In this document: piece after piece, positions 29,977 to 39,754 of the stretch
Position numbering within the stretch: position 1 is the stretch's first letter
Layout: every line of letters begins with the position of its first letter
Source of the DNA: Chthoniobacteraceae bacterium
Lineage (GTDB): Bacteria; Verrucomicrobiota; Verrucomicrobiia; Chthoniobacterales; Chthoniobacteraceae
Direction: 5' to 3'
NCBI GenBank assembly: GCA_031409335.1
Contig: JANNWY010000149.1
Location: forward strand, 1-41,454
DNA length: 41,454 nucleotides
The notes under the pieces: model-generated
Seen by the model: the letters and a program-made list of their open reading frames with translations, nothing else
Databases searched by the model: none
Told to the model about the DNA's origin: nothing
Translations under genes and position numbers: made by a program

Positions 29977-30696
29977 ATGATTCAGTCAGCGGATCAAGCT
30001 CCAGCCAAAGACTCAATGCGTGTCCTCCTTGCCGAAGATGAAAAGAAGATCGCCCTGCATATTCGCGCGGCTTTGCGTGAGCAGGGTTTCACCGTCGATC
30101 TCGTTCATCGTGGCGATGAGGCGCTGGAAGCCGCGCTGCGCACGCCTTACGACGCGCTCGTGCTCGATGTGATGATGCCGGGCCGCGACGGTTTAAGCAT
30201 CCTCCGCATCCTGCGGGAAAAGCGCGTGGCCACTCCGGTGTTGATCGTGACGGCGCGCGGCGAAGTCTCTGAGCGCGTCGAGGGGCTGATGCTCGGGGCG
30301 GACGATTATCTTTCAAAGCCGTTTGCGATGAATGAGCTGGTCGCGCGCGTCGTCGCGCTGACCCGCCGCGGCAGCAGCCAGGGCCTCACGCTTTTGCAGG
30401 TCGAGGATCTTACGATGAATCTCACCACGCGCGAGGTGCGGCGCGCGGGGCAGAAGATCGAGCTGCCCCTGCGCGAATTCGCGCTCCCCGAGTATCGCCT
30501 GCGTTCGCCGTGGCGCATGCTTTCAAAAACTCAGCTCATCGAAAACGTGTGGGAGTGGCACTTCGATACCGGCACGAATGTCGTCGAGGTTTACCTCCAG
30601 CGCCTTCGCAGAAAGGTGGACGATGGCCACTGCGGAATGGCTGGCGGGGCGATGAAACGCAATTCCGCCTTTCGTGCATCATCGGTCGCGGGATAG
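29977..30696 (+). pseudogene. OmpR-family response regulator, decayed and 3'-truncated duplicate of 39044-39754
   Basis: Near-identical protein to the second copy up to KVDDGH (nt 30630), then unrelated sequence. It lacks the C-terminal IHTVRSVGY wing and has non-conservative changes (LPEYRLRSPWRM vs LLEYLMRSPGRV). Alternative start at 30016. Confidence 0.75.
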
Positions 30697-30704
30697 CCTC
30701 CCCC

Positions 30705-31289
30705 ATGCTCAAAAGCGCAGCCCATCTCGACCGCATCCTCGCCGCCCTCGGCAGCCTCCAGTATTACCTGAAGCTCAACTCCGCGCAGGGCTTCATCTCC
30801 CCCGCCGCGCACCTTGAGGACTTCTGCATCCCGCTGCTCGACGCGGTGTACGGATACAGCCTCACCAACGCCAACGCCGCCAAATCCAACACCCCGGCCA
30901 TTGACCTCATTGATGACAATGAGCGGCTCGGCATCCAAGTCACCATCAACGACAAGGCCACAAAGATCAGCGATACCTACAAGACAGCCGCAGACCTGAA
31001 GCACAACCTCGGCGCGGAGATCGGCAAGCTGCTCATTTTCTTCTTTACCGCCAAAGCACCCAAGACTCCCGCCGGCGTCAAAGCAGTTCCCGGCATCACC
31101 ATCGAACTGCTCGACCTCACCGACCTCATCACCGAAATCCGCAGCTTCCCGCCGGAGAAGCAGGAGCAAATCGCCGCGCTGCTCGACCACGAACTATCCT
31201 CGGGGCCGTCGGCAAGATACATCATCAACGCGACGAACGTGACGGTGATTCCCGGACGCATCGAGACGCTCACCATCCACAACCACTGA
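30705..31289 (+). CDS. Stand-alone SMEK-like domain protein (predicted restriction-endonuclease-like defence effector) with a short C-terminal beta-prone tail
   Basis: Pattern EDFCIPLLDAVYGYSLTNAN....NTPAIDLID....GIQVT......KI..T recognised by eye as SMEK-like. No HMM was run. Confidence 0.65.
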   Translation: MLKSAAHLDRILAALGSLQYYLKLNSAQGFISPAAHLEDFCIPLLDAVYGYSLTNANAAKSNTPAIDLIDDNERLGIQVTINDKATKISDTYKTAADLKHNLGAEIGKLLIFFFTAKAPKTPAGVKAVPGITIELLDLTDLITEIRSFPPEKQEQIAALLDHELSSGPSARYIINATNVTVIPGRIETLTIHNH

Positions 31290-31348
31290 AAAATAGCCGT
31301 GGGTGAGGAACGAGCCCACGGAACTGACCCGAGCGGGAAGCGCCCAGT

Positions 31349-31481
31349 GTAGGCGAGATTTGCAATCTCGCTTCGTTGGCACACGAGATTTGCAATCTCG
31401 CTTGGCAGGCGTCGTTCTCACCGAAAACGTGCAGGATTCCGAACTGCCGCATCGCCAAGCGAGATTGCAAATCTCGCCTAC
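31349..31481. repeat. GTAG-type REP cluster (three palindromic units, the last inverted)
   Basis: gtaggcgagatttgcaatctcgctt (31349), cgagatttgcaatctcgcttggc (31384) and gccaagcgagattgcaaatctcgcctac (31454-31481). Confidence 0.8.
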
Positions 31482-31592
31482 GTTATGCCCGCTTGCGCGG
31501 GCGATCCTGCCGCTTGCACCACGTTCGACAAACCGCATTTTCCCCGCAGGCTTGCGAAGCCGCCCACCGCCCGCGATACACAGCCGCAGCCC

Positions 31593-34085
31593 ATGGCATC
31601 CAAACGCGCAAAGAGCATCCAGATCATCGAGCAGGCAGGCTCCGTCACCATCGTCAATGGCGCGGGCAAGACGGGCAACCTCAGCCCTTACCTCCAGCGT
31701 GTCACAAATGATTGCGAGCGTATCGAGCTGGAGCAGTTCGGCAGCCTTGTTCCCAAGAGCGTCAAACTCATCCCACTCGCGAAAGTCTATGTCTCGCTCG
31801 ACACTCAGGAGTGGGAGCGCGAGGAAGTGGATGAACCGCAAAAGCAACAGCCGCGCGAGTTGCTCCCTGCGCTCGATGTTCTCGGGCGCGAGCCGCGTCT
31901 GGTCATCCTCGGCGACCCCGGCTCGGGGAAATCCACCTTTTTCCGCTACGTCGCCCACTGCCTCGCTTGCGCACGCTTGGGGAATGAAGAGGCGAGCGTG
32001 AAGAAGTGGCCTGCGTCCCTGCACAAGTGCCTCCCATTTTCCGTCGAGTTGAAATGGTTCGCTGACTGGATGGCGAAAAAGAACATCAAGCGGGCGGACG
32101 AAAGCCACCTGTGGGAATACCTCAAGACCGAGGTGCTCAAGAGCTACGAGGACGCATGGGAGCCGCTTGGCGATGTGCTCAATGACCGCACCTTCGCGGG
32201 CCGCATCGTCTTTTTCCTCGATGGGCTGGACGAAGTGTATAGCGACGACCACCGCGAGCTCGTCATCGGCGCCATCAATGAATTCTCCAAGAGCGGACGC
32301 GGGGCCTGCCGCATTGCCGTGACGTGTCGCGAGGCCACCTACGCCCAAACGGAATGGCGACTTGATGCCAAATTTCACGTCACCCGGCTCGCCAGCCTCT
32401 CGGACGGCACCGAGTCCCAGCGCAAGTCCAACCAAGTGCAGGAGTTCGTCGAAGCATGGTTCTCCGTCATCGGGCAGCCCGCTTTGGCGAAGGAAATCCT
32501 CGCTTCTTTTGGCAAGCAGCCCCGCCTGCGGGAACTCGCGTGCAATCCGATGAACCTCACCAATATCGTCCTCCTCCGCGCCGGGGGCACGCCGCTGCCC
32601 GAAAACCGCGCCGAGCTATGGAGAGCCGTCATCCACCAGCTCCTCTTCCAGCGCGACCGTGCAAAGGACAAAGCCCACCTCAAGAGCCCGCTCGATGCCG
32701 TGCTCGACCGGCTGCACTGTAGCGAGGCGGATTTGCACCACTCGCTCGGCAGGATGTTTTTCGATGCGCACCAGCATCACCCGCCGGATGCCCCGCCTAC
32801 CATGCTCTCGCGCAGCGCGCTTCACGAGATGGCCAAGCGCCTGCGCGACGATACACCGTGGGCGGATGAGCTGGTGGAGAATTTCACCCAGCGCCCCGGC
32901 CTTCTCCGCAGCCGCGCGCGGGACCGATATTGCTGCCCGCACCTCAGCTTTCAGGAATGGCTCGCCGCGTGGCACCTCGCCGGGCAGCCCCGCTGTGTGG
33001 ACGAAATGTCCCGGCTGCTTGGCACGACGGAGTTTCGGCAGCAGTGGCGCGAAGTCGCAAAGTGGCTTGCCGAGCAGTGGGTGCATATTTTGGGAAGACC
33101 GGACCTCGTGCTCGCTCTCGCAAAGGCGCTCTGCAATGGCGACCCGGCGGCGATGTCCCCTTGCGACATCGCCCGCGCAAAGCTCGCCTCCGAGATTCTC
33201 GGCGAGCTGGGGAAGGAGAAAATCGCGGCGCGTCCGCTGGGTTGCGAGTTGCTTGCAGCGGTCCGCCCGGTGCTTGCTTCGCTGCTCACCACGGAGCGGC
33301 TGGAGGCTCGCGACCGCGCCGCTGCGGGCATGGTGCTCGGGCAGCTTGGCGACCTGCGCGAGGGCGTCGGCTGCGGCGAAAAGGGCGTGCCCGTTTTCAA
33401 ATGGAGCGCGGAGTTTCCAGCGGGCGACTTCACCCTCGGCGAGGGCAAAAAGAAGCGCCGCATCCTCGACGCCTACCGCATGAGTATTTACCCCGTCACC
33501 GTCCAGCAGTTCGCCGCTTTTCTCGCGGCGGGCTATCGCGAGGCCGGGCCGAAGGACTACGAGCAGGCGGAGTTTCAGACGCCGAACCATCCCCGCGTCG
33601 GCGTCTCGTGGTACGAGGCTACCGCGTTTTGCGCGTGGGTCTCCGCACAAACGAAGAACGCAATCCGCCTGCCCACCGAGGCTGAGTGGGAGCGGGCGGC
33701 GGCGGGTGATGGGAAAAAGGGGCGTGAGTTTGCGTGGAGCGATGCGAAGGACGACGGGCTTTCCATACGCTGCAATATGGGCGGCACTGGCATCGGGCAC
33801 CCGTCGGCGGTGGGCATATTCCCCACGGGCAACACGCCCGAGGGCATCGCCGATATGACGGGCAATGTGTGGGAGTGGTGCGCCAGCCGTTACAACGACG
33901 ACTCCGAAGATGCCAGCAAGCCGGTCGCCGAAATTAAGAGCGACCAGTCCGGCGTGGTTCGTGGCGGGTCGTGGGGCTACGGCTATCCCGACTATCTCCG
34001 CGCTTCGTTTCGCACCTTCTATCCTCCCGGCTACCGTTACGACTTTATCGGTTTTCGGGTGGTGGTGGTGGGTGCGGCGTGCTAG
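31593..34085 (+). CDS. DGR target 1: NACHT/STAND NTPase + FGE-sulfatase (CLec-fold) protein
   Basis: Walker A GDPGSGKST, Walker B FFLDGLDEV, VTCR, NPMNL and HLSFQEWLAA. C-terminal PRVGVSWYEA, RLPTEAEWE, DMTGNVWEW, RGGSW and GFRV. ATG 31593 preferred over 31485. Confidence 0.92.
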   Translation: MASKRAKSIQIIEQAGSVTIVNGAGKTGNLSPYLQRVTNDCERIELEQFGSLVPKSVKLIPLAKVYVSLDTQEWEREEVDEPQKQQPRELLPALDVLGREPRLVILGDPGSGKSTFFRYVAHCLACARLGNEEASVKKWPASLHKCLPFSVELKWFADWMAKKNIKRADESHLWEYLKTEVLKSYEDAWEPLGDVLNDRTFAGRIVFFLDGLDEVYSDDHRELVIGAINEFSKSGRGACRIAVTCREATYAQTEWRLDAKFHVTRLASLSDGTESQRKSNQVQEFVEAWFSVIGQPALAKEILASFGKQPRLRELACNPMNLTNIVLLRAGGTPLPENRAELWRAVIHQLLFQRDRAKDKAHLKSPLDAVLDRLHCSEADLHHSLGRMFFDAHQHHPPDAPPTMLSRSALHEMAKRLRDDTPWADELVENFTQRPGLLRSRARDRYCCPHLSFQEWLAAWHLAGQPRCVDEMSRLLGTTEFRQQWREVAKWLAEQWVHILGRPDLVLALAKALCNGDPAAMSPCDIARAKLASEILGELGKEKIAARPLGCELLAAVRPVLASLLTTERLEARDRAAAGMVLGQLGDLREGVGCGEKGVPVFKWSAEFPAGDFTLGEGKKKRRILDAYRMSIYPVTVQQFAAFLAAGYREAGPKDYEQAEFQTPNHPRVGVSWYEATAFCAWVSAQTKNAIRLPTEAEWERAAAGDGKKGREFAWSDAKDDGLSIRCNMGGTGIGHPSAVGIFPTGNTPEGIADMTGNVWEWCASRYNDDSEDASKPVAEIKSDQSGVVRGGSWGYGYPDYLRASFRTFYPPGYRYDFIGFRVVVVGAAC
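33948..34079 (+). repeat. DGR variable region VR1
   Basis: 132-nt match to TR (35820-35951, minus strand) with 17 substitutions, all at TR adenines. Confidence 0.97.
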
Positions 34086-34194
34086 CGCTGGGTGTCTTTT
34101 TATCCTTTGTTCCTTTTACACTCTTACCCTTTTAGAAAGGGCGTGGCTTGGCGAATGGCATGGAAAGCAGCCTGCGCAGCTGGAAAATTTTTTG
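34086..34194 (+). promoter_or_regulatory. Conserved post-VR element 1 (candidate IMH-adjacent target-recognition sequence with hairpin)
   Basis: ~110 nt shared with 36012-36122 (minus), including a 37-nt identical core and hairpin cccttt-tag-aaaggg (34127-34141). Absent downstream of TR. Confidence 0.7.
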
Positions 34195-34212
34195 CGGAAA
34201 AAAACGACTGTT

Positions 34213-35211
34213 CTACCCGCTGGAATACACCTTTCGCAGCCCCTCGGTGTTCCCTTCTTTGCTGAATTGGTACCATGCAAAGACCGTCTGCGTCACCCGC
34301 TGGTAGTCGCGGGCAAGCACCAGCCTGTGCTTGCGCTGCTCAAAGCGCCGCTTCGTCGCCCCGAGCACGCGGGGGCGCAACCCAGGCAGAAAGCGGAAGC
34401 CGCAAAACGGCACACCTTCCCTCGTTGCGAGCAGCCGCGATTTTGGCTCCGCCAAAAGCAGATGCACTTTCGCCAATTCTGCGACGACGGCGTGTTTCAG
34501 CGCCCCGAGCGCCGCACGGTCGTCGGCAAAGATGAGGAAATCATCCGTGTACCGCACCATCGCGCCACACTGCCACTGCTCGGTGATGATGTGGTCCAGC
34601 CCATCGAGGTAAAGATTTCCCCAAAGCTGTGAGGTGAGATTGCCGATGGGCAGGCCGCATGGCCGCGCCGCGCCTTCCGTGCGGTAGCTGGAGATGATCC
34701 TCCCGAGCAGCCCACGCACCGCGGGGCAGCGCACCTTTGGCGCCAGCAGCCCGAGCAGCGTCTCGTGGTCGATGCTGGGGAAGAACTTCCGCACATCGCA
34801 TTTCAGCACGAAGCGATACTGGTTCACCAGCTTGCGGCAGCATTCGCGGGCGGCAGTCGTGCCCTTGCCGAGCTGGCAGGAAAAGCTGCGCGCGATGAAC
34901 TGCCGCTCCATCACCGGGGCGAGGAGATTGCAGAGGGCGTGATGCACCACGCGGTCGCGAAACGGCGCAGCGGCGATCATCCGGCGCTTGGGCTCCCGAA
35001 TCTCGAAGAAATGATACGGCCCCGGTCGGTAGCTGCCGGAGCGCAGTTCCTCGCGCAGGGCGGCCAGCTCCGTCTCCCGGCGCATCCACCACGCCTCCAC
35101 ATCCGGGCGGCGGCGTTTGCCCCGGCGGGCCTTGTCGGCGGCGGTGAAAAGGTTTTCCCACGAAGCGACGGCTTCCATCGTGCAGATACGGGATTGCTGG
35201 CGTGGTGTCAT
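34213..35211 (-). CDS. DGR-type reverse transcriptase
   Basis: WENL..A...ARRGK, EPKRR.I.AAPFRDRVVHHAL, LKCDVRKFFPSIDH, GLPIGNLTSQ (DGR-type SQ), RYTDD and FCGFR. Alternative starts at 35178 and 35256. Confidence 0.96.
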   Translation of the reverse strand: MTPRQQSRICTMEAVASWENLFTAADKARRGKRRRPDVEAWWMRRETELAALREELRSGSYRPGPYHFFEIREPKRRMIAAAPFRDRVVHHALCNLLAPVMERQFIARSFSCQLGKGTTAARECCRKLVNQYRFVLKCDVRKFFPSIDHETLLGLLAPKVRCPAVRGLLGRIISSYRTEGAARPCGLPIGNLTSQLWGNLYLDGLDHIITEQWQCGAMVRYTDDFLIFADDRAALGALKHAVVAELAKVHLLLAEPKSRLLATREGVPFCGFRFLPGLRPRVLGATKRRFEQRKHRLVLARDYQRVTQTVFAWYQFSKEGNTEGLRKVYSSG

Positions 35212-35231
35212 CGGGCTGCTTGTGTGTGCAG

Positions 35232-35582
35232 ATGCCACTACCGGAACATCCGCCACTTTACACCGCCCTTTGCGACCTCATCGCTTGGACGCTCCAGCGC
35301 ACCGCCAGCATCCCCAAGAGCCACCGCTTCACCTTTGGCCAGCGCATCGAGAATCTCTCGCTCGATGCGCTCATGCTCTGCATCCGCGCGACCTACGCTG
35401 CGCGGGGGAAAAAGGCGGCGTTTCTGGATGAACTGAATCTTTTTCTGGAGCAGCTGCGCGTGCTCTGGCGGCTCGTCCACGGGCAGGCTTGGGTGAGCCA
35501 GCAGCAGCTCGTCTTCATCATCGGAAAGATCGACGAGGCCGGGCGGATGACGGGCGGCTGGCTGCGGCAGCTATCGAAGTGA
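35232..35582 (+). CDS. avd: DGR accessory variability determinant (Avd, four-helix bundle)
   Basis: 116-aa helical protein with PKSHRFTFGQRI, LEQLRVLWRL and GRMTGGW, adjacent to RT and TR. Confidence 0.9.
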   Translation: MPLPEHPPLYTALCDLIAWTLQRTASIPKSHRFTFGQRIENLSLDALMLCIRATYAARGKKAAFLDELNLFLEQLRVLWRLVHGQAWVSQQQLVFIIGKIDEAGRMTGGWLRQLSK

Positions 35583-36007
35583 AAAAGTTGCAGGCGGTGG
35601 CTTTCATCGCCGCCCGGAGGCGGCACTACCGGCCACGGCCTGCGCCGCGTATTTTCCCCGCGTCTTTGCGGCACTCGCGGCACCACCCTTTCATCCTTCC
35701 GGGCTGGCGCGGGGCGTGGCAGGTGGGGTTAGGCTGGGCATCTTGGCACGGGCCGCGCAGAGCGTCCGCCCCACGCGGCATCTCGCCGGTTTCTGTTTTA
35801 GCATTTGCGCCGCCTTGCGCGCCGCACCCACCACCACCACCCGAAAACCGATATTGTTGTTACGGTTGCCGGGATGATTGTTGTTGCGATACGAAGCGCG
35901 GAGATTGTCGGGATTGTTGTTGCCCCACGACCCGCCACGAACCACGCCGGTGCGGCCCCATCCGCTCACTTCCAGCCGGCATCCCCCGAAAGGAACACCG
36001 ACCGAAA
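35583..36007 (-). ncRNA. Predicted DGR template RNA (5' hairpin + TR + structured spacer)
   Basis: Minus-strand-specific 17-bp UUCG hairpin just before TR, further hairpins after TR, and a closing stem plus U-run near 35583. Boundaries are inferred. Confidence 0.6.
35820..35951 (-). repeat. DGR template repeat (TR)
   Basis: acc ggc gtg gtt cgt ggc ggg tcg tgg ggc aac aac aat ccc gac aat ... aac aac aat atc ggt ttt cgg gtg...: an AAC/AAT-rich copy of both VRs with 27 adenines. Confidence 0.97.
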
Positions 36008-36011
36008 TCTT

Positions 36012-36122
36012 CAAAAAAATTTCCCTGCTGCGCAGACTGCTTTCCATGCCATTTGCAAAGCCACGCCCTTTCTAAAAGGGTAAGAGTGTAAAAGAACTAA
36101 AGGGTAAACAAGACACCCAGCA
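36012..36122 (-). promoter_or_regulatory. Conserved post-VR element 2
   Basis: Inverted copy of 34086-34194; hairpin at 36066-36080. Confidence 0.7.
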
Positions 36123-38655
36123 CTAGCACGCCGCACCCACCACCACCACCCGAAAACCGAAATCGACGACACGGTTGCCGGGAAGACCGTCGAAGCGACA
36201 CGAAGCGCGGAAGATTGACGGGAGAGCTGAGGCCCCACGACCCGCCACGAACCACGCCGGCCTTGTCGCTCTCGGGGTTCTCATCCGGCTGGTAGTCGCG
36301 GTAGTTGTCGGTCCAGCGCGTGGAGCACCACTCCCACACATTGCCCGCCATGTCCTCCGCGCCACACTCCGCTTTCCCAGCGGGGAAGAGCCCGACTGCG
36401 GAGGTGTGGCCGATGCCGACTTCATGCCAGTTTGCCTGGTCCTTGAGGGCTGCCTTGCCCCACGGATATTCCCGCGCATCGGTATGCCGGGCGGCGCGTT
36501 CCCACTGCGGCTCGCTGGGCAGAGCGATGCGGTCACTATCGCGCAAGCCGAGGGCGACGCGCTGCGTGTGCAGCCATGCGGCAAAGGCAGTGGCCTCGTA
36601 CCACGAGACGCCGACGCGGGGATGGTTCGGCGTCTGGAAAATGCGGTCGAATCGCTCCGGGCCGGTGATGCGTTCCGCGCGCAGCCAGCGCCAGCCCGCC
36701 TTCGTCCACAGCGCCTCAGCCTCATACCCGCCCGCCGCCATAAACGCGGCATATTGCTCCACGGTGATGGGGTATCGCGAAATGCGGTAGTCCTCGCGGA
36801 TGTCGAAAAGGATGCGCGGTTTTTCATCGTCGTAGGGGGCCGTGTCATTGCCCATCGGGAACTTTCCGGCAGCGACTTTGCACCACTCGATGGCCGGCAG
36901 CTCCAGTTTGGCGACGGTGGTGCAGCCCACGCCCGGACGGTCGTCGCCGAGGATGCCGATGCCAGCGGCGGCTAGGGCGCGCTGCTTCGCCGGGGCGGCG
37001 CTGTCGCGGATGCCGAGCAGCTTGGTGCGCAAGTCGGCGATGGTGCGCTTGGAAGTGGGGACATCTTCATCATCCCAAGTGGCGATGCGGGCATCGCGGG
37101 CAATCTCCGCAGCGAGCAGGTCGTCTCCTTTCGCCATGAGCGCGGCGATGAGGGCGAGTACGTGGTGCTGCATATTCTTCCGCGCATGGGCCTGCACGCC
37201 CGCCGCCCAGAGCACTGTCTTGCGGGCGTAGTCGCCCTGCTTTTCCAGCGTCTCGATGACGCGCTTGGGGAAAGTTTTCCCCTCCGCGAGCGCATCGTTC
37301 GTGAGGTGGCATCCGGCGAGAAATTCCTCGAAGCGGTAGTGAAACTCCAGCGCCTCGCTATCGCGGGATTGCAGGATGCCCGCGCGGTCGCGCAGCGCGG
37401 CGATGAGGGCGGCGCGGTCGTCGTCCGTCCACTTCGGGTCGAGGCGCAGGCGGTTTTCCAAGAGGTCTATATCGACGGGGAGCGACTTGCCGCCCTCGCG
37501 CTCCACGGTGGCGGTGCGCTCGCGGTGGAGGAAGGCGATCGTCTCCAGCCGGGAGCGGAGTTTCGCCGGGTCCGCGGCGATGGGGCGGGGCTGGGTGGGG
37601 TCGTCGGCTTTTCGCGAATCGCGGAGGATGCCATCCACGAGCTGGTCCATGAGCGCGGCCCCGGTATCCGGCAGGGGCTTTTCCAGCCGGTGAAGCTGGG
37701 CCATGACGGTGAGGAAAAAAGGATTGCCCGCCATGTCCTGCAAATCCTCGGAGGCGCGGATGGCTTTGCGCAGGGTGCGCTCGCATTGCTCCTGTTCGGC
37801 GTCGGTTTTCAGGAAGCCGCAGTCTTTGGATTCTTGGTACCAAGCCGCAATGAATCGCTGCTGGAGCGCATCCGAAAGAGGGATGAGCTGGTGCGGGTCG
37901 GGGAAGCCGGGAATGGGCATCCCGGTCTGCTCGTACGAGGCGATGCGGCAGGTGACGACGATGCGGGACTTTGCAAAGCCGCCCGTGGCAAACGAGCGGA
38001 TAGCCTCGCGGATGACGGGGAGGCGGAGTTGAGGGACTTCATCGAGGCCATCGAAAAAGACCACGGCGGCCCCGCGCTGGAGCAAGTCTTCGAGGTGCTG
38101 CTCGGCGGCGGTGTGGCAGGCTTTGGCGAGTTGCGCCTTGAGCCATGCGAGGACTTCCGCCGCCGTGCCTTTTGCCTCCGGCGCAAGGTCGCGCTCGAAG
38201 TGGCGGAGGACGATGCGAAAGGGCACCGGGCCTTTTTCCTCCCCCGCCAGCCGCAGCGCGACGTGCTGGACGAAGGTGCTCTTCCCCGAGCCAGGCTCGC
38301 CGGTGAAGACGGCCTTCTTTGCGTCCGGGAGAAAGAGCGCGTCCCACGCGGAGAGCGCGCGGCTTCCCACCTCCTTGCCCTTGTCGCCCGGCAGGTGGCT
38401 GCTCGTCTCCAGCGCGACATACACGACATCCAGCCCCGGCGCCCGCTGCCCGCGCTCCGCCGCGATGTTCAAGCCGACGACGTTCACGTTCTTGCACTGC
38501 TCGGCGAGCGACTTGCAGTAGCCCGCAAAGACGGCGCGCAACGCTTCATCGGAAGGCGGCAAGGTGGGCACGGTGCCGTAGTAGTGGTTGTGCTGCGTGC
38601 CGACCCGCTCGTTGATCTGCACGTTCTTGCCGGTGGCTTTGGGTTGCGATTTCAT
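36123..38655 (-). CDS. DGR target 2: NACHT/STAND NTPase + FGE-sulfatase (CLec-fold) protein, frameshifted inside VR2 as sequenced
   Basis: GEPGSGKST, FFDGLDEV, VTCR, GNPFFL and FEEFLAG; CLec motifs PRVGVSWYEA, LPSEPQWE, DMAGNVWEW and RGGSW. The proper ending [11 protein letters not shown] (36123) is in another frame, so as written the ORF runs to 36097. Confidence 0.88.
36129..36261 (-). repeat. DGR variable region VR2
   Basis: Matches TR with 20 substitutions, all at TR adenines, plus one extra T (aatcttccgc vs aatctccgc; position 36211/36212). Confidence 0.96.
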
Positions 38656-39043: not shown

Positions 39044-39754
39044 ATGATTCCATCCGTATCCGAGATACACTCCGAATCCATGCGCGTCCTCCTCGCCGAA
39101 GATGAAAAGAAGATCGCCCTGCACATCCGCGCGGCTTTGCGCGAGCAGGGCTTCGCCGTGGACATGGTGCATCGCGGCGACGAGGCGCTGGAAGCCGCGT
39201 CGCAGACGCCGTACGATGCCATCGTTCTCGATGTGATGATGCCGGGCCGCGACGGCTTGAGCATCCTCCGCGTCCTGCGGGAAAAGCGCGTGGCCACGCC
39301 GGTGCTCATCGTGACGGCACGCGGCGAAGTCTCCGAGCGGGTCGAGGGGTTGATGCTCGGCGCGGACGATTATCTCGCGAAGCCATTCGCGATGAATGAG
39401 CTGGTCGCCCGCGTCGTCGCGCTGACCCGGCGCGGGAGCAGCCAGGGATTGACTCTCCTGCGCGTGGCGGATTTGACGATGAATCTCATCACCCGCGAAG
39501 TGCGGCGCGGCGCGGAAAAGATCGAACTGCCGCTGCGCGAATTCGCGCTGCTCGAATATCTGATGCGTTCGCCAGGGCGCGTGCTTTCCAAGACGCAGCT
39601 CATCGAAAACGTGTGGGAGTGGCACTTCGACACCGGCTCGAATGTGGTCGAAGTCTATATCAAGCGGCTGCGCAACAAGGTGGACGATGGCCACGCGGTG
39701 AAGCTCATCCACACCGTGCGCAGCGTCGGCTACGTGCTGAGAAAGGACGAATGA
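39044..39754 (+). CDS. OmpR-family two-component response regulator (intact copy)
   Basis: LLAEDE, LDVMMPG, GADDYLAKPF, LREFALLEYL, NVVEVYIKRLR and IHTVRSVGY motifs. Alternative start at 39080. Confidence 0.93.
   Translation: MIPSVSEIHSESMRVLLAEDEKKIALHIRAALREQGFAVDMVHRGDEALEAASQTPYDAIVLDVMMPGRDGLSILRVLREKRVATPVLIVTARGEVSERVEGLMLGADDYLAKPFAMNELVARVVALTRRGSSQGLTLLRVADLTMNLITREVRRGAEKIELPLREFALLEYLMRSPGRVLSKTQLIENVWEWHFDTGSNVVEVYIKRLRNKVDDGHAVKLIHTVRSVGYVLRKDE

Follow-up and report, generated by a model that had tools for sequence, protein, structure and literature searches.

Short matched motifs may couple hypermutating NACHT-CLec receptors to a stand-alone SMEK protein in a Chthoniobacteraceae bacterium

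Introduction

How does a hypermutated receptor relay its signal when it carries neither an effector nor an adaptor domain? In the available text of the papers that describe STAND receptors with C-type lectin (CLec) domains diversified by a diversity-generating retroelement (DGR), this is left open, and it is raised by a cassette at positions 30705-38655 of contig JANNWY010000149.1 (Chthoniobacteraceae bacterium, assembly GCA_031409335.1). The window analysed here is that whole contig of 41,454 nucleotides (nt), part of a 7.9-Mb genome (contig C149 of genome G000 in our numbering). The cassette comprises five genes and a template repeat (TR), in the order SMEK, target 1, reverse transcriptase (RT), Avd, TR and target 2, the targets being the two receptors.

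The answer that we consider rather probable is that the hypermutated NACHT-CLec receptors activate the SMEK protein by tag-templated, amyloid-like assembly, the tags being short motifs matched between the receptor N-termini and the effector C-terminus. An initial annotation, made from the DNA letters, had proposed such coupling and had judged the combination undescribed. In the literature searched, DGR STAND-CLec/EAD adaptors and bacterial amyloid signalling sequence (BASS) pairs are each known; their union, or a nuclease effector for it, was likewise not found.

Results

The features on which the argument turns are these:

30705..31289, plus strand: stand-alone SMEK protein, 194 amino acids (Pfam and NCBIfam families, structure model, fold comparison, conserved residues)
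31218..31286, plus strand: effector C-terminal motif, type A (motif alignment and profiles)
31593..34085, plus strand: target 1, motif followed by NACHT-type NTPase and FGE/CLec, 830 amino acids (Pfam)
31611..31661, plus strand: target 1 N-terminal motif, type A (motif alignment and profiles)
36097..38655, minus strand: target 2, motif followed by NACHT and FGE/CLec, C-terminus out of frame (Pfam, reading frame)
38575..38631, minus strand: target 2 N-terminal motif, type A (motif alignment and profiles)

The three motif segments lie where the initial annotation had placed them. Similarity was scored for 49 motif pairs, with p values from composition-keeping shuffles (floor 0.0005), and genome-wide ranks refer to 4374 C-termini predicted by our own codon-score gene caller, a set that is probably incomplete for a genome of 7.9 Mb. 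A search restricted to proteins of 106-340 amino acids returned close SMEK relatives (63-75% identical), and 7/7 of them carry a beta-prone C-terminal tail rich in I, V, N, Q and T. These tails fall into a window-like type A (P0002-P0004), a type B (P0005-P0007) and a composite, P0008, whose 63 residues start as type B, continue as type A and end in a new type C. Against target 1, the type-A tails (P0002-P0004) reach 44-49, with shuffle p at its floor of 0.0005; against target 2 they reach 27-41. On a profile of four receptor N-termini, they outrank all 4374 genome C-termini and the window tail ranks 4/4374 (shuffle p 0.005); on a profile of the P0002-P0004 tails, both window targets outscore all 3000 random 32-mers drawn from the genome. 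The effector tail and the two receptor segments are therefore one motif class in one register, with a type-A core of only ~17 residues. The likeness that the initial annotation had noted by eye is thus weak within the window and becomes credible because the homologues support it. Its finer claim, that the first half of the tail corresponds to target 1 and the second half to target 2, does not hold, since all three segments align in the same register; a composite tail does exist, in the related locus L002 and not in the window.

Composition was gauged with a BASS-style score (enriched in Q, N, G, V and I; poor in K, P and L; background 95th percentile 0.55), which target 1 (0.60) and the L002 tail (0.70) exceed and the tail of a second related locus, L001 (0.45), does not. 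As single chains in AlphaFold2, the window tail is modelled at a predicted local distance difference test score (pLDDT) of about 50-60 and the L002 tail mostly under 50, with no beta solenoid; these tail results are uninformative because the alignments are shallow. A search of the ESM Atlas with the L002 tail gave no usable match.

L001 and L002 are the two closest loci with known context, both from the same family as the source organism and set in other genomic surroundings. L002 has the five-gene order of the window, its SMEK stop and target 1 start overlapping by ATGA. Its target 1, 39% identical to that of the window, has at its N-terminus a zinc ribbon and a motif of another kind. The L002 SMEK tail alone matches that motif (41, p 0.001, vs 17 for the window tail and 15 for the L001 tail). 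Codons differ between the L002 tail and the target 1 motif, so that a recent duplication of DNA does not account for the match. The middle of the same tail matches type-A tails at 49-52 (P0002, P0004). In target 2, window and L002 differ at 6 residues over codons 1-8 and at 5/19 over codons 9-27. In L001, the target 2 N-terminus matches the SMEK tail at 35 (p 0.0005). Two loci have a zinc ribbon ahead of the receptor motif (L002 10699-10780, L084 10044-10120).

In a midpoint-rooted tree of 40 SMEK domains, with rows taken from the top of three homologue lists, the eight proteins with a tail group together as a single clade (100/99) within a 95/90 group, most of whose other members are SMEK-STAND fusions. 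A 99/100 sub-clade contains both tail types, A and B, which are also found outside it, and almost zero branch length separates P0004 (type A) from P0007 (type B). The tails are therefore exchanged independently of the nuclease core. The conservation of tails that the initial annotation had proposed to check in homologous loci is thus present, the co-variation between effector and receptor being limited to one event. Coupling in trans via short matched tags is supported by tail conservation, by swapping, by this one co-variation and by TIR and Bell-like analogues described below, so that the trans element of the proposal is strengthened by the relatives.

Wider searches added little: metagenome contigs yielded 1 fragmentary match, 401 genomes of the class no additional close SMEK, 401 of the phylum plus 401 of the order no new tagged receptor loci, plasmids 5 distant SMEK matches and viral contigs 4 distant NACHT matches.

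Fused relatives, in which these segments would be unconserved linkers, were named by the initial annotation as the finding that would tell against it. Close homologues are not of this kind: the longer SMEK proteins are only 30-43% identical to the window protein, a Walker A motif lies downstream in 31/152 distant SMEK proteins, and the fusion linkers inspected by eye show no such motif. The source genome itself encodes a fused SMEK-NACHT protein (L008, G000:C212:62223-62690, a 973-amino-acid frame) that lacks a tag. That the window SMEK and target 1 are a single fusion broken by sequencing error was ruled out, the effector stop being identical in contigs of two runs; homologues also stop at the same place. 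One distant stand-alone SMEK protein (P0165, 247 amino acids) has a long G/V/N-rich tail of another kind.

Tagged effectors of other types accompany related receptors elsewhere. In G413 (L084 9380-14503, G413:C24), a TIR gene directly precedes a zinc ribbon-motif-NACHT-FGE gene, and the two motifs match at 72 (p 0.0005); Avd-like and RT-like remnants, identified by eye, follow the receptor, the RT being split by a transposase-like open reading frame (ORF), and no TR for this receptor was found in the G413 genome. Further along comes a second short helical gene, whose 3' end is duplicated. In G542 (L087 8948-13168, G542:C14), a NACHT-FGE gene is succeeded after ~20 bases by a 150-amino-acid helical protein, Bell-like on reading of its sequence, whose C-terminal motif matches equally well (72, p 0.0005). 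The same contig holds a divergent pair of helical domain-motif-NACHT-FGE genes (L085 10347-16654); the minus-strand member loses its frame in a run of A immediately past the motif, through either slippage or sequencing error, and what is left is a helical protein standing alone, with the motif at its C-terminus. At least 120 NACHT-FGE homologues were among the matches listed, 107 of them with a usable Walker A motif; 23/107 have a Q/N/G/V/I-rich 20-mer above the background 95th percentile, where 5% would be expected. Twelve of these 23 tag-like stretches lie within roughly the first 60 residues, and the rest lie behind another domain of the same chain.

The initial annotation had further named a SMEK domain, two NACHT-CLec receptors with almost nothing ahead of NACHT, and a hypermutating DGR, and these identifications were borne out. 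The gene at 30705-31289 exceeds the cut-offs of Pfam PF21941 (E 2.8e-26; 92.5 vs 27 bits) and NCBIfam NF033859 (80.5 vs 30 bits). Its structure model (pLDDT 88.9) is confident over residues 1-166 and of low confidence in the tail. Among the top rows of a VIA-align comparison, most are nucleases of the restriction-endonuclease fold (Z up to 8.5), including the N-terminal domain of LlaBIII (Z 8.5, root-mean-square deviation (rmsd) 3.0, 121 aligned), AspBHI (Z 6.9), FokI (Z 6.6) and the N-terminal domain of Avs4 (Z 6.4, rmsd 3.6, 122 aligned). Residues 1-166 are accordingly predicted, from the model, to adopt a restriction-endonuclease (Mrr-like) fold. In an alignment of 72 SMEK proteins, Q78 and K87 never vary, and E38, D67, D70 and T80 hardly do; the window protein retains all six residues (E38, D67, D70, Q78, T80 and K87), which may be catalytic. 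Nuclease activity is therefore predicted, from the modelled fold, the conserved residues and the label of nuclease domain given to SMEK in the available text of PMC10810196.

Both targets are P-loop/NACHT and FGE-sulfatase (CLec) proteins by Pfam. Target 1 falls just below the Pfam NACHT cut-off (24.9 vs 26.7) and exceeds that of NPHP3_N; target 2 exceeds the NACHT cut-off. In each, only ~30 residues precede the conserved pre-NACHT segment, and the receptor N-termini match no Pfam, NCBIfam or PADLOC family, be it an EAD adaptor or a fused effector. An alternative in-frame ATG for target 1 lies at 31485. No Pfam match to RHIM or a similar motif was found in the window proteins or the G413 locus.

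The retroelement and its repeats are placed as follows:

33949..34085, plus strand: variable repeat 1 (VR1) (TR/VR comparison)
34213..35211, minus strand: DGR reverse transcriptase, start at 35211 or 35178 (family profiles)
35232..35582, plus strand: Avd accessory protein (Pfam bAvd above cut-off)
35814..35950, minus strand: template repeat, 137 nt (repeat comparison)
36123..36260, minus strand: variable repeat 2 (VR2) (TR/VR comparison)

RVT_1 and bAvd both exceed their Pfam cut-offs, giving the RT and Avd by which a DGR is recognised; against NF033474, Avd scores 76.7 (cut-off 80). Between VR1 and the TR, 17/18 mismatches fall on TR adenines, and between VR2 and the TR, 20/21 do, with one extra base near 36211 in VR2. 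The DGR is real and its variation is adenine-specific. The corresponding counts in L002 are 17/17 and 18/18, its TR differing from that of the window at 2/137 bases. RT, Avd and TR are intact in the window, and the rest of the genome holds no further match to the TR. In both loci Avd lies between RT and TR and is encoded opposite to them. The extra base is also present, base for base, in a 492-nt contig of depth 10 from the likely source run, which is not independent support. A VR is the stretch that retrohoming overwrites, and the VR2 frameshift lies inside the stretch that the TR would overwrite; the one-base insertion is possibly a by-product of mutagenic retrohoming. The frameshift in target 2 makes it doubtful that both receptors are functional in the source strain, where target 1 is more likely to be the active partner.

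Discussion

Model: The DGR has mutated the CLec domains of the two NACHT proteins at adenine positions. Binding of a foreign ligand by a hypermutated CLec domain would then cause the NACHT protein to oligomerise, and the clustered N-terminal tags would template the C-terminal tag of SMEK into an amyloid-like beta stack. The predicted nuclease domains would thus be brought together and activated to cleave DNA, and the infected cell would be killed or arrested. The ligand, the oligomerisation, the binding of the tags, their cross-beta structure, the DNA cleavage and the role in defence are all conditional parts of this model.

Several known systems inform the model. Avs4-type STAND proteins have a fused Mrr-like nuclease of similar predicted fold to the SMEK protein here; these and the SMEK-STAND fusions differ from the cassette in being single chains with a repeat-based sensor, no tag and no DGR. 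Avs4-type proteins are reportedly activated by STAND oligomerisation, as Gao et al. are said to have found in 2022. The closest counterparts in wiring are, from the text available, the BASS1-10 pairs of NLR and effector (Dyrka 2020), in which, as here, a small effector ends in a short motif matching one at the N-terminus of an adjacent NACHT protein, the genes sometimes overlap, and the effector domain also occurs in all-in-one fusions (here G000:C212). This two-gene versus all-in-one pattern has been described for amyloid signalling (bioRxiv 10.1101/2020.01.06.895854), with Bell, hydrolase, TIR, CHAT, cyclase and EAD7 partners described for BASS pairs. Unlike those pairs, the cassette has a predicted nuclease, CLec sensors, a DGR and two receptors. 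It would work like a BASS pair, with a match that is weak for the window tail and strong for the homologous tails, for L001 and for target 1 of L002. By eye only, tag types A and C resemble cluster C02 (e.g., C02_s312) and the G413/G542 motifs cluster C09 (C09_s074) of PMC8086366 supplement 1. Bab/Agp with BASS11 (Ibarlosa, bioRxiv 10.1101/2024.11.07.622273) provides experimental proof of amyloid sensor-effector coupling in antiphage defence and a mechanistic model for the cassette; it pairs a membrane-targeting Bell-like effector with a TPR-GreA/B-PIN sensor and no DGR, and its main text, as available, mentions neither SMEK nor FGE. For the receptors, the nearest likeness is to DGR 6 and DGR 3 (clade 5D) of Thiohalocapsa PB-PSB1 (Dore 2024, PMC10907252; Kaur 2021, PMC8195603), each DGR likewise having two STAND-CLec targets. 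There, in the text available, the proposal is that a common adaptor, EAD8, recruits a separate effector in trans; unlike here, the adaptor is a named EAD and the effector a protease. The available text of the same two papers describes EAD adaptors, in-trans effectors and many N-terminal extensions without characterised domains in DGR STAND-FGS pairs.

The literature base comprised the accessible parts of Dyrka 2020, Ibarlosa, Dore 2024, Kaur 2021, the Kibby preprint (10.1101/2022.07.19.500537), PMC12261475 and PMC8086366. For amyloid together with DGR or formylglycine NACHT/NLR proteins, only Dore 2024 and Kaur 2021 were retrieved, each containing "amyloid" once (in Dore 2024 in the reference list only), in a search outside of which lay most subscription journals, figures and bioRxiv supplements (BASS pair tables and BASS11 extended data, where an FGE-type receptor may appear). 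Judged by titles and the opening of abstracts, the SMEK domain literature retrieved contained no such system.

A number of observations weigh against tag-templated activation as set out above. The choice of segments and profile anchors followed inspection of the sequences. Within the window, the tail scores 27 against target 1 (shuffle p 0.0095), a value equalled or surpassed by 25/4374 C-termini, and 24 against target 2 (p 0.06; 69/4374). Of the four type-A tails it has diverged furthest, having lost a conserved Gln and gained an extra residue at Pro-Gly, and it contains proline; its composition score (0.40) and that of target 2 (0.50) are both below the 0.55 threshold. Proline serves as a beta-breaker in Bab/Agp, according to the available text of bioRxiv 10.1101/2024.11.07.622273. 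The extra base of VR2 puts the last ~30 codons of target 2 out of frame. SMEK loci with context number three, the window included, five further tail-bearing SMEK proteins having no known neighbours, and the co-variation of tags is the single event in L002, whose tail does not match its own target 2 significantly in the pairwise comparison (26, p 0.20). Of the cassette, L001 has lost target 1 together with RT, Avd and TR, and it carries target 2 in split form. On the effector side, a top Z of 8.5 is middling, and a Foldseek search of the SMEK model against PDB gave no match at E <= 0.001. Finally, similar motifs occur inside single-chain domain-motif-NACHT proteins, and the tags may therefore serve another structural use.

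These points bear differently on three other explanations. The system might work as proposed in the family at large with the window copy decaying, or confined to target 1, an account that overlaps with our own and that we think somewhat unlikely. The diverged tail with its Pro-Gly insertion, the VR2 frameshift, the repeats between effector and target 1 and the decay of L001 would all be expected from it; the conserved SMEK residues, RT, Avd and TR are nonetheless intact, the tail still ranks 4/4374 and, by the established DGR mechanism, the frameshift sits where retrohoming would overwrite it. We give still less credence to the notion that the tags dock in a finite, homotypic beta-sheet or beta-helix on the NACHT ring, coupling receptor and nuclease as a minimal EAD-like adaptor and forming no self-propagating amyloid. 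Its attraction is that the comparative evidence shows matched tags, not fibrils, that the type-A core is short with similar motifs in single-chain proteins, and that DGR STAND-CLec pairs with a shared EAD8 adaptor and a nearby effector are known from the available text of PMC10907252 and PMC8195603. Tag length, position and gene arrangement nevertheless suit BASS pairs as described, as does the composition bias of target 1 and the L002 tail, and the tags resemble published BASS training sequences by eye; tested motifs of this kind form fibrils, as reported in the accessible parts of bioRxiv 10.1101/2020.01.06.895854, bioRxiv 10.1101/2024.11.07.622273 and PMC8086366.

Least probable, and in our view quite improbable, is that the segments are leftover linkers or low-complexity ends from the fission of an old SMEK-NACHT fusion, alike in composition alone, with SMEK independent or inactive. 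Fusions do surround the stand-alone clade, the in-window scores are weak and AlphaFold gives the tails no confident structure. Shuffles that keep composition are still beaten, however, and the inspected fusions are without the motif; moreover, the tails come in discrete, swappable types, the motif gained by the L002 tail is precisely that of target 1 in the same locus, and the differences between the target 2 genes of window and L002 are concentrated in codons 1-8 rather than in codons 9-27.

Tag-templated activation, if correct, would bring amyloid signalling to a nuclease output, to lectin-fold hypervariable sensors and to a wiring of many sensors to one effector. Matched tags would be a concrete answer to the relay question posed at the outset. 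More tentatively, with chances that we place a little short of even, DGR NACHT-CLec receptors across bacteria may signal via interchangeable amyloid tags, several sensors feeding one effector (nuclease, TIR or Bell-like) that rewires its inputs when it gains, stacks or swaps tags, as the composite build of the L002 tail suggests. Such a scheme would join adaptive-like receptor diversification to prion-like signal amplification and include the first amyloid-controlled nuclease found in the literature searched. It would also account for many N-terminal extensions of DGR targets that lack characterised domains, given the excess of tag-like stretches among NACHT-FGE homologues. Peptides of 17-25 residues and a compact five-gene cassette offer a testable handle, and the window/L002 pair constitutes a natural specificity experiment, i.e., the same nuclease with a different target 1 tag.

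Further features of the locus and of related retroelements

One feature remains to be placed:

31349..31481, no strand: REP-like palindromic repeats separating effector from target 1 (repeat comparison)

These palindromes, which we take to be of the repetitive extragenic palindromic (REP) kind, have one further copy, in G000:C169. A 95-nt sequence after VR1 (34099-34193) recurs inverted, at 91%, between VR2 and TR (36014-36108), and is a candidate initiation of mutagenic homing (IMH) or hairpin element common to both targets. A divergent porin gene precedes the cassette, which is flanked by two copies of an OmpR-type response regulator gene, one truncated and the other intact (30016-30640 and 39080-39754; 88% identical over 300 nt). 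The flanks look like insertion by recombination; no integrase was found among the ORFs checked around the cassette.

Across 151 genomes of the family, RT matches at E <= 1e-40 numbered 15 besides the window, one being L002. Ten further RT regions were scanned (four short RT contigs being omitted) and had FGE neighbours without a Walker A motif. Such same-family DGRs beside FGE proteins lacking Walker A include L043, L044, L046 and L051, with N-termini that appear, by eye, kinase-like or caspase-like.

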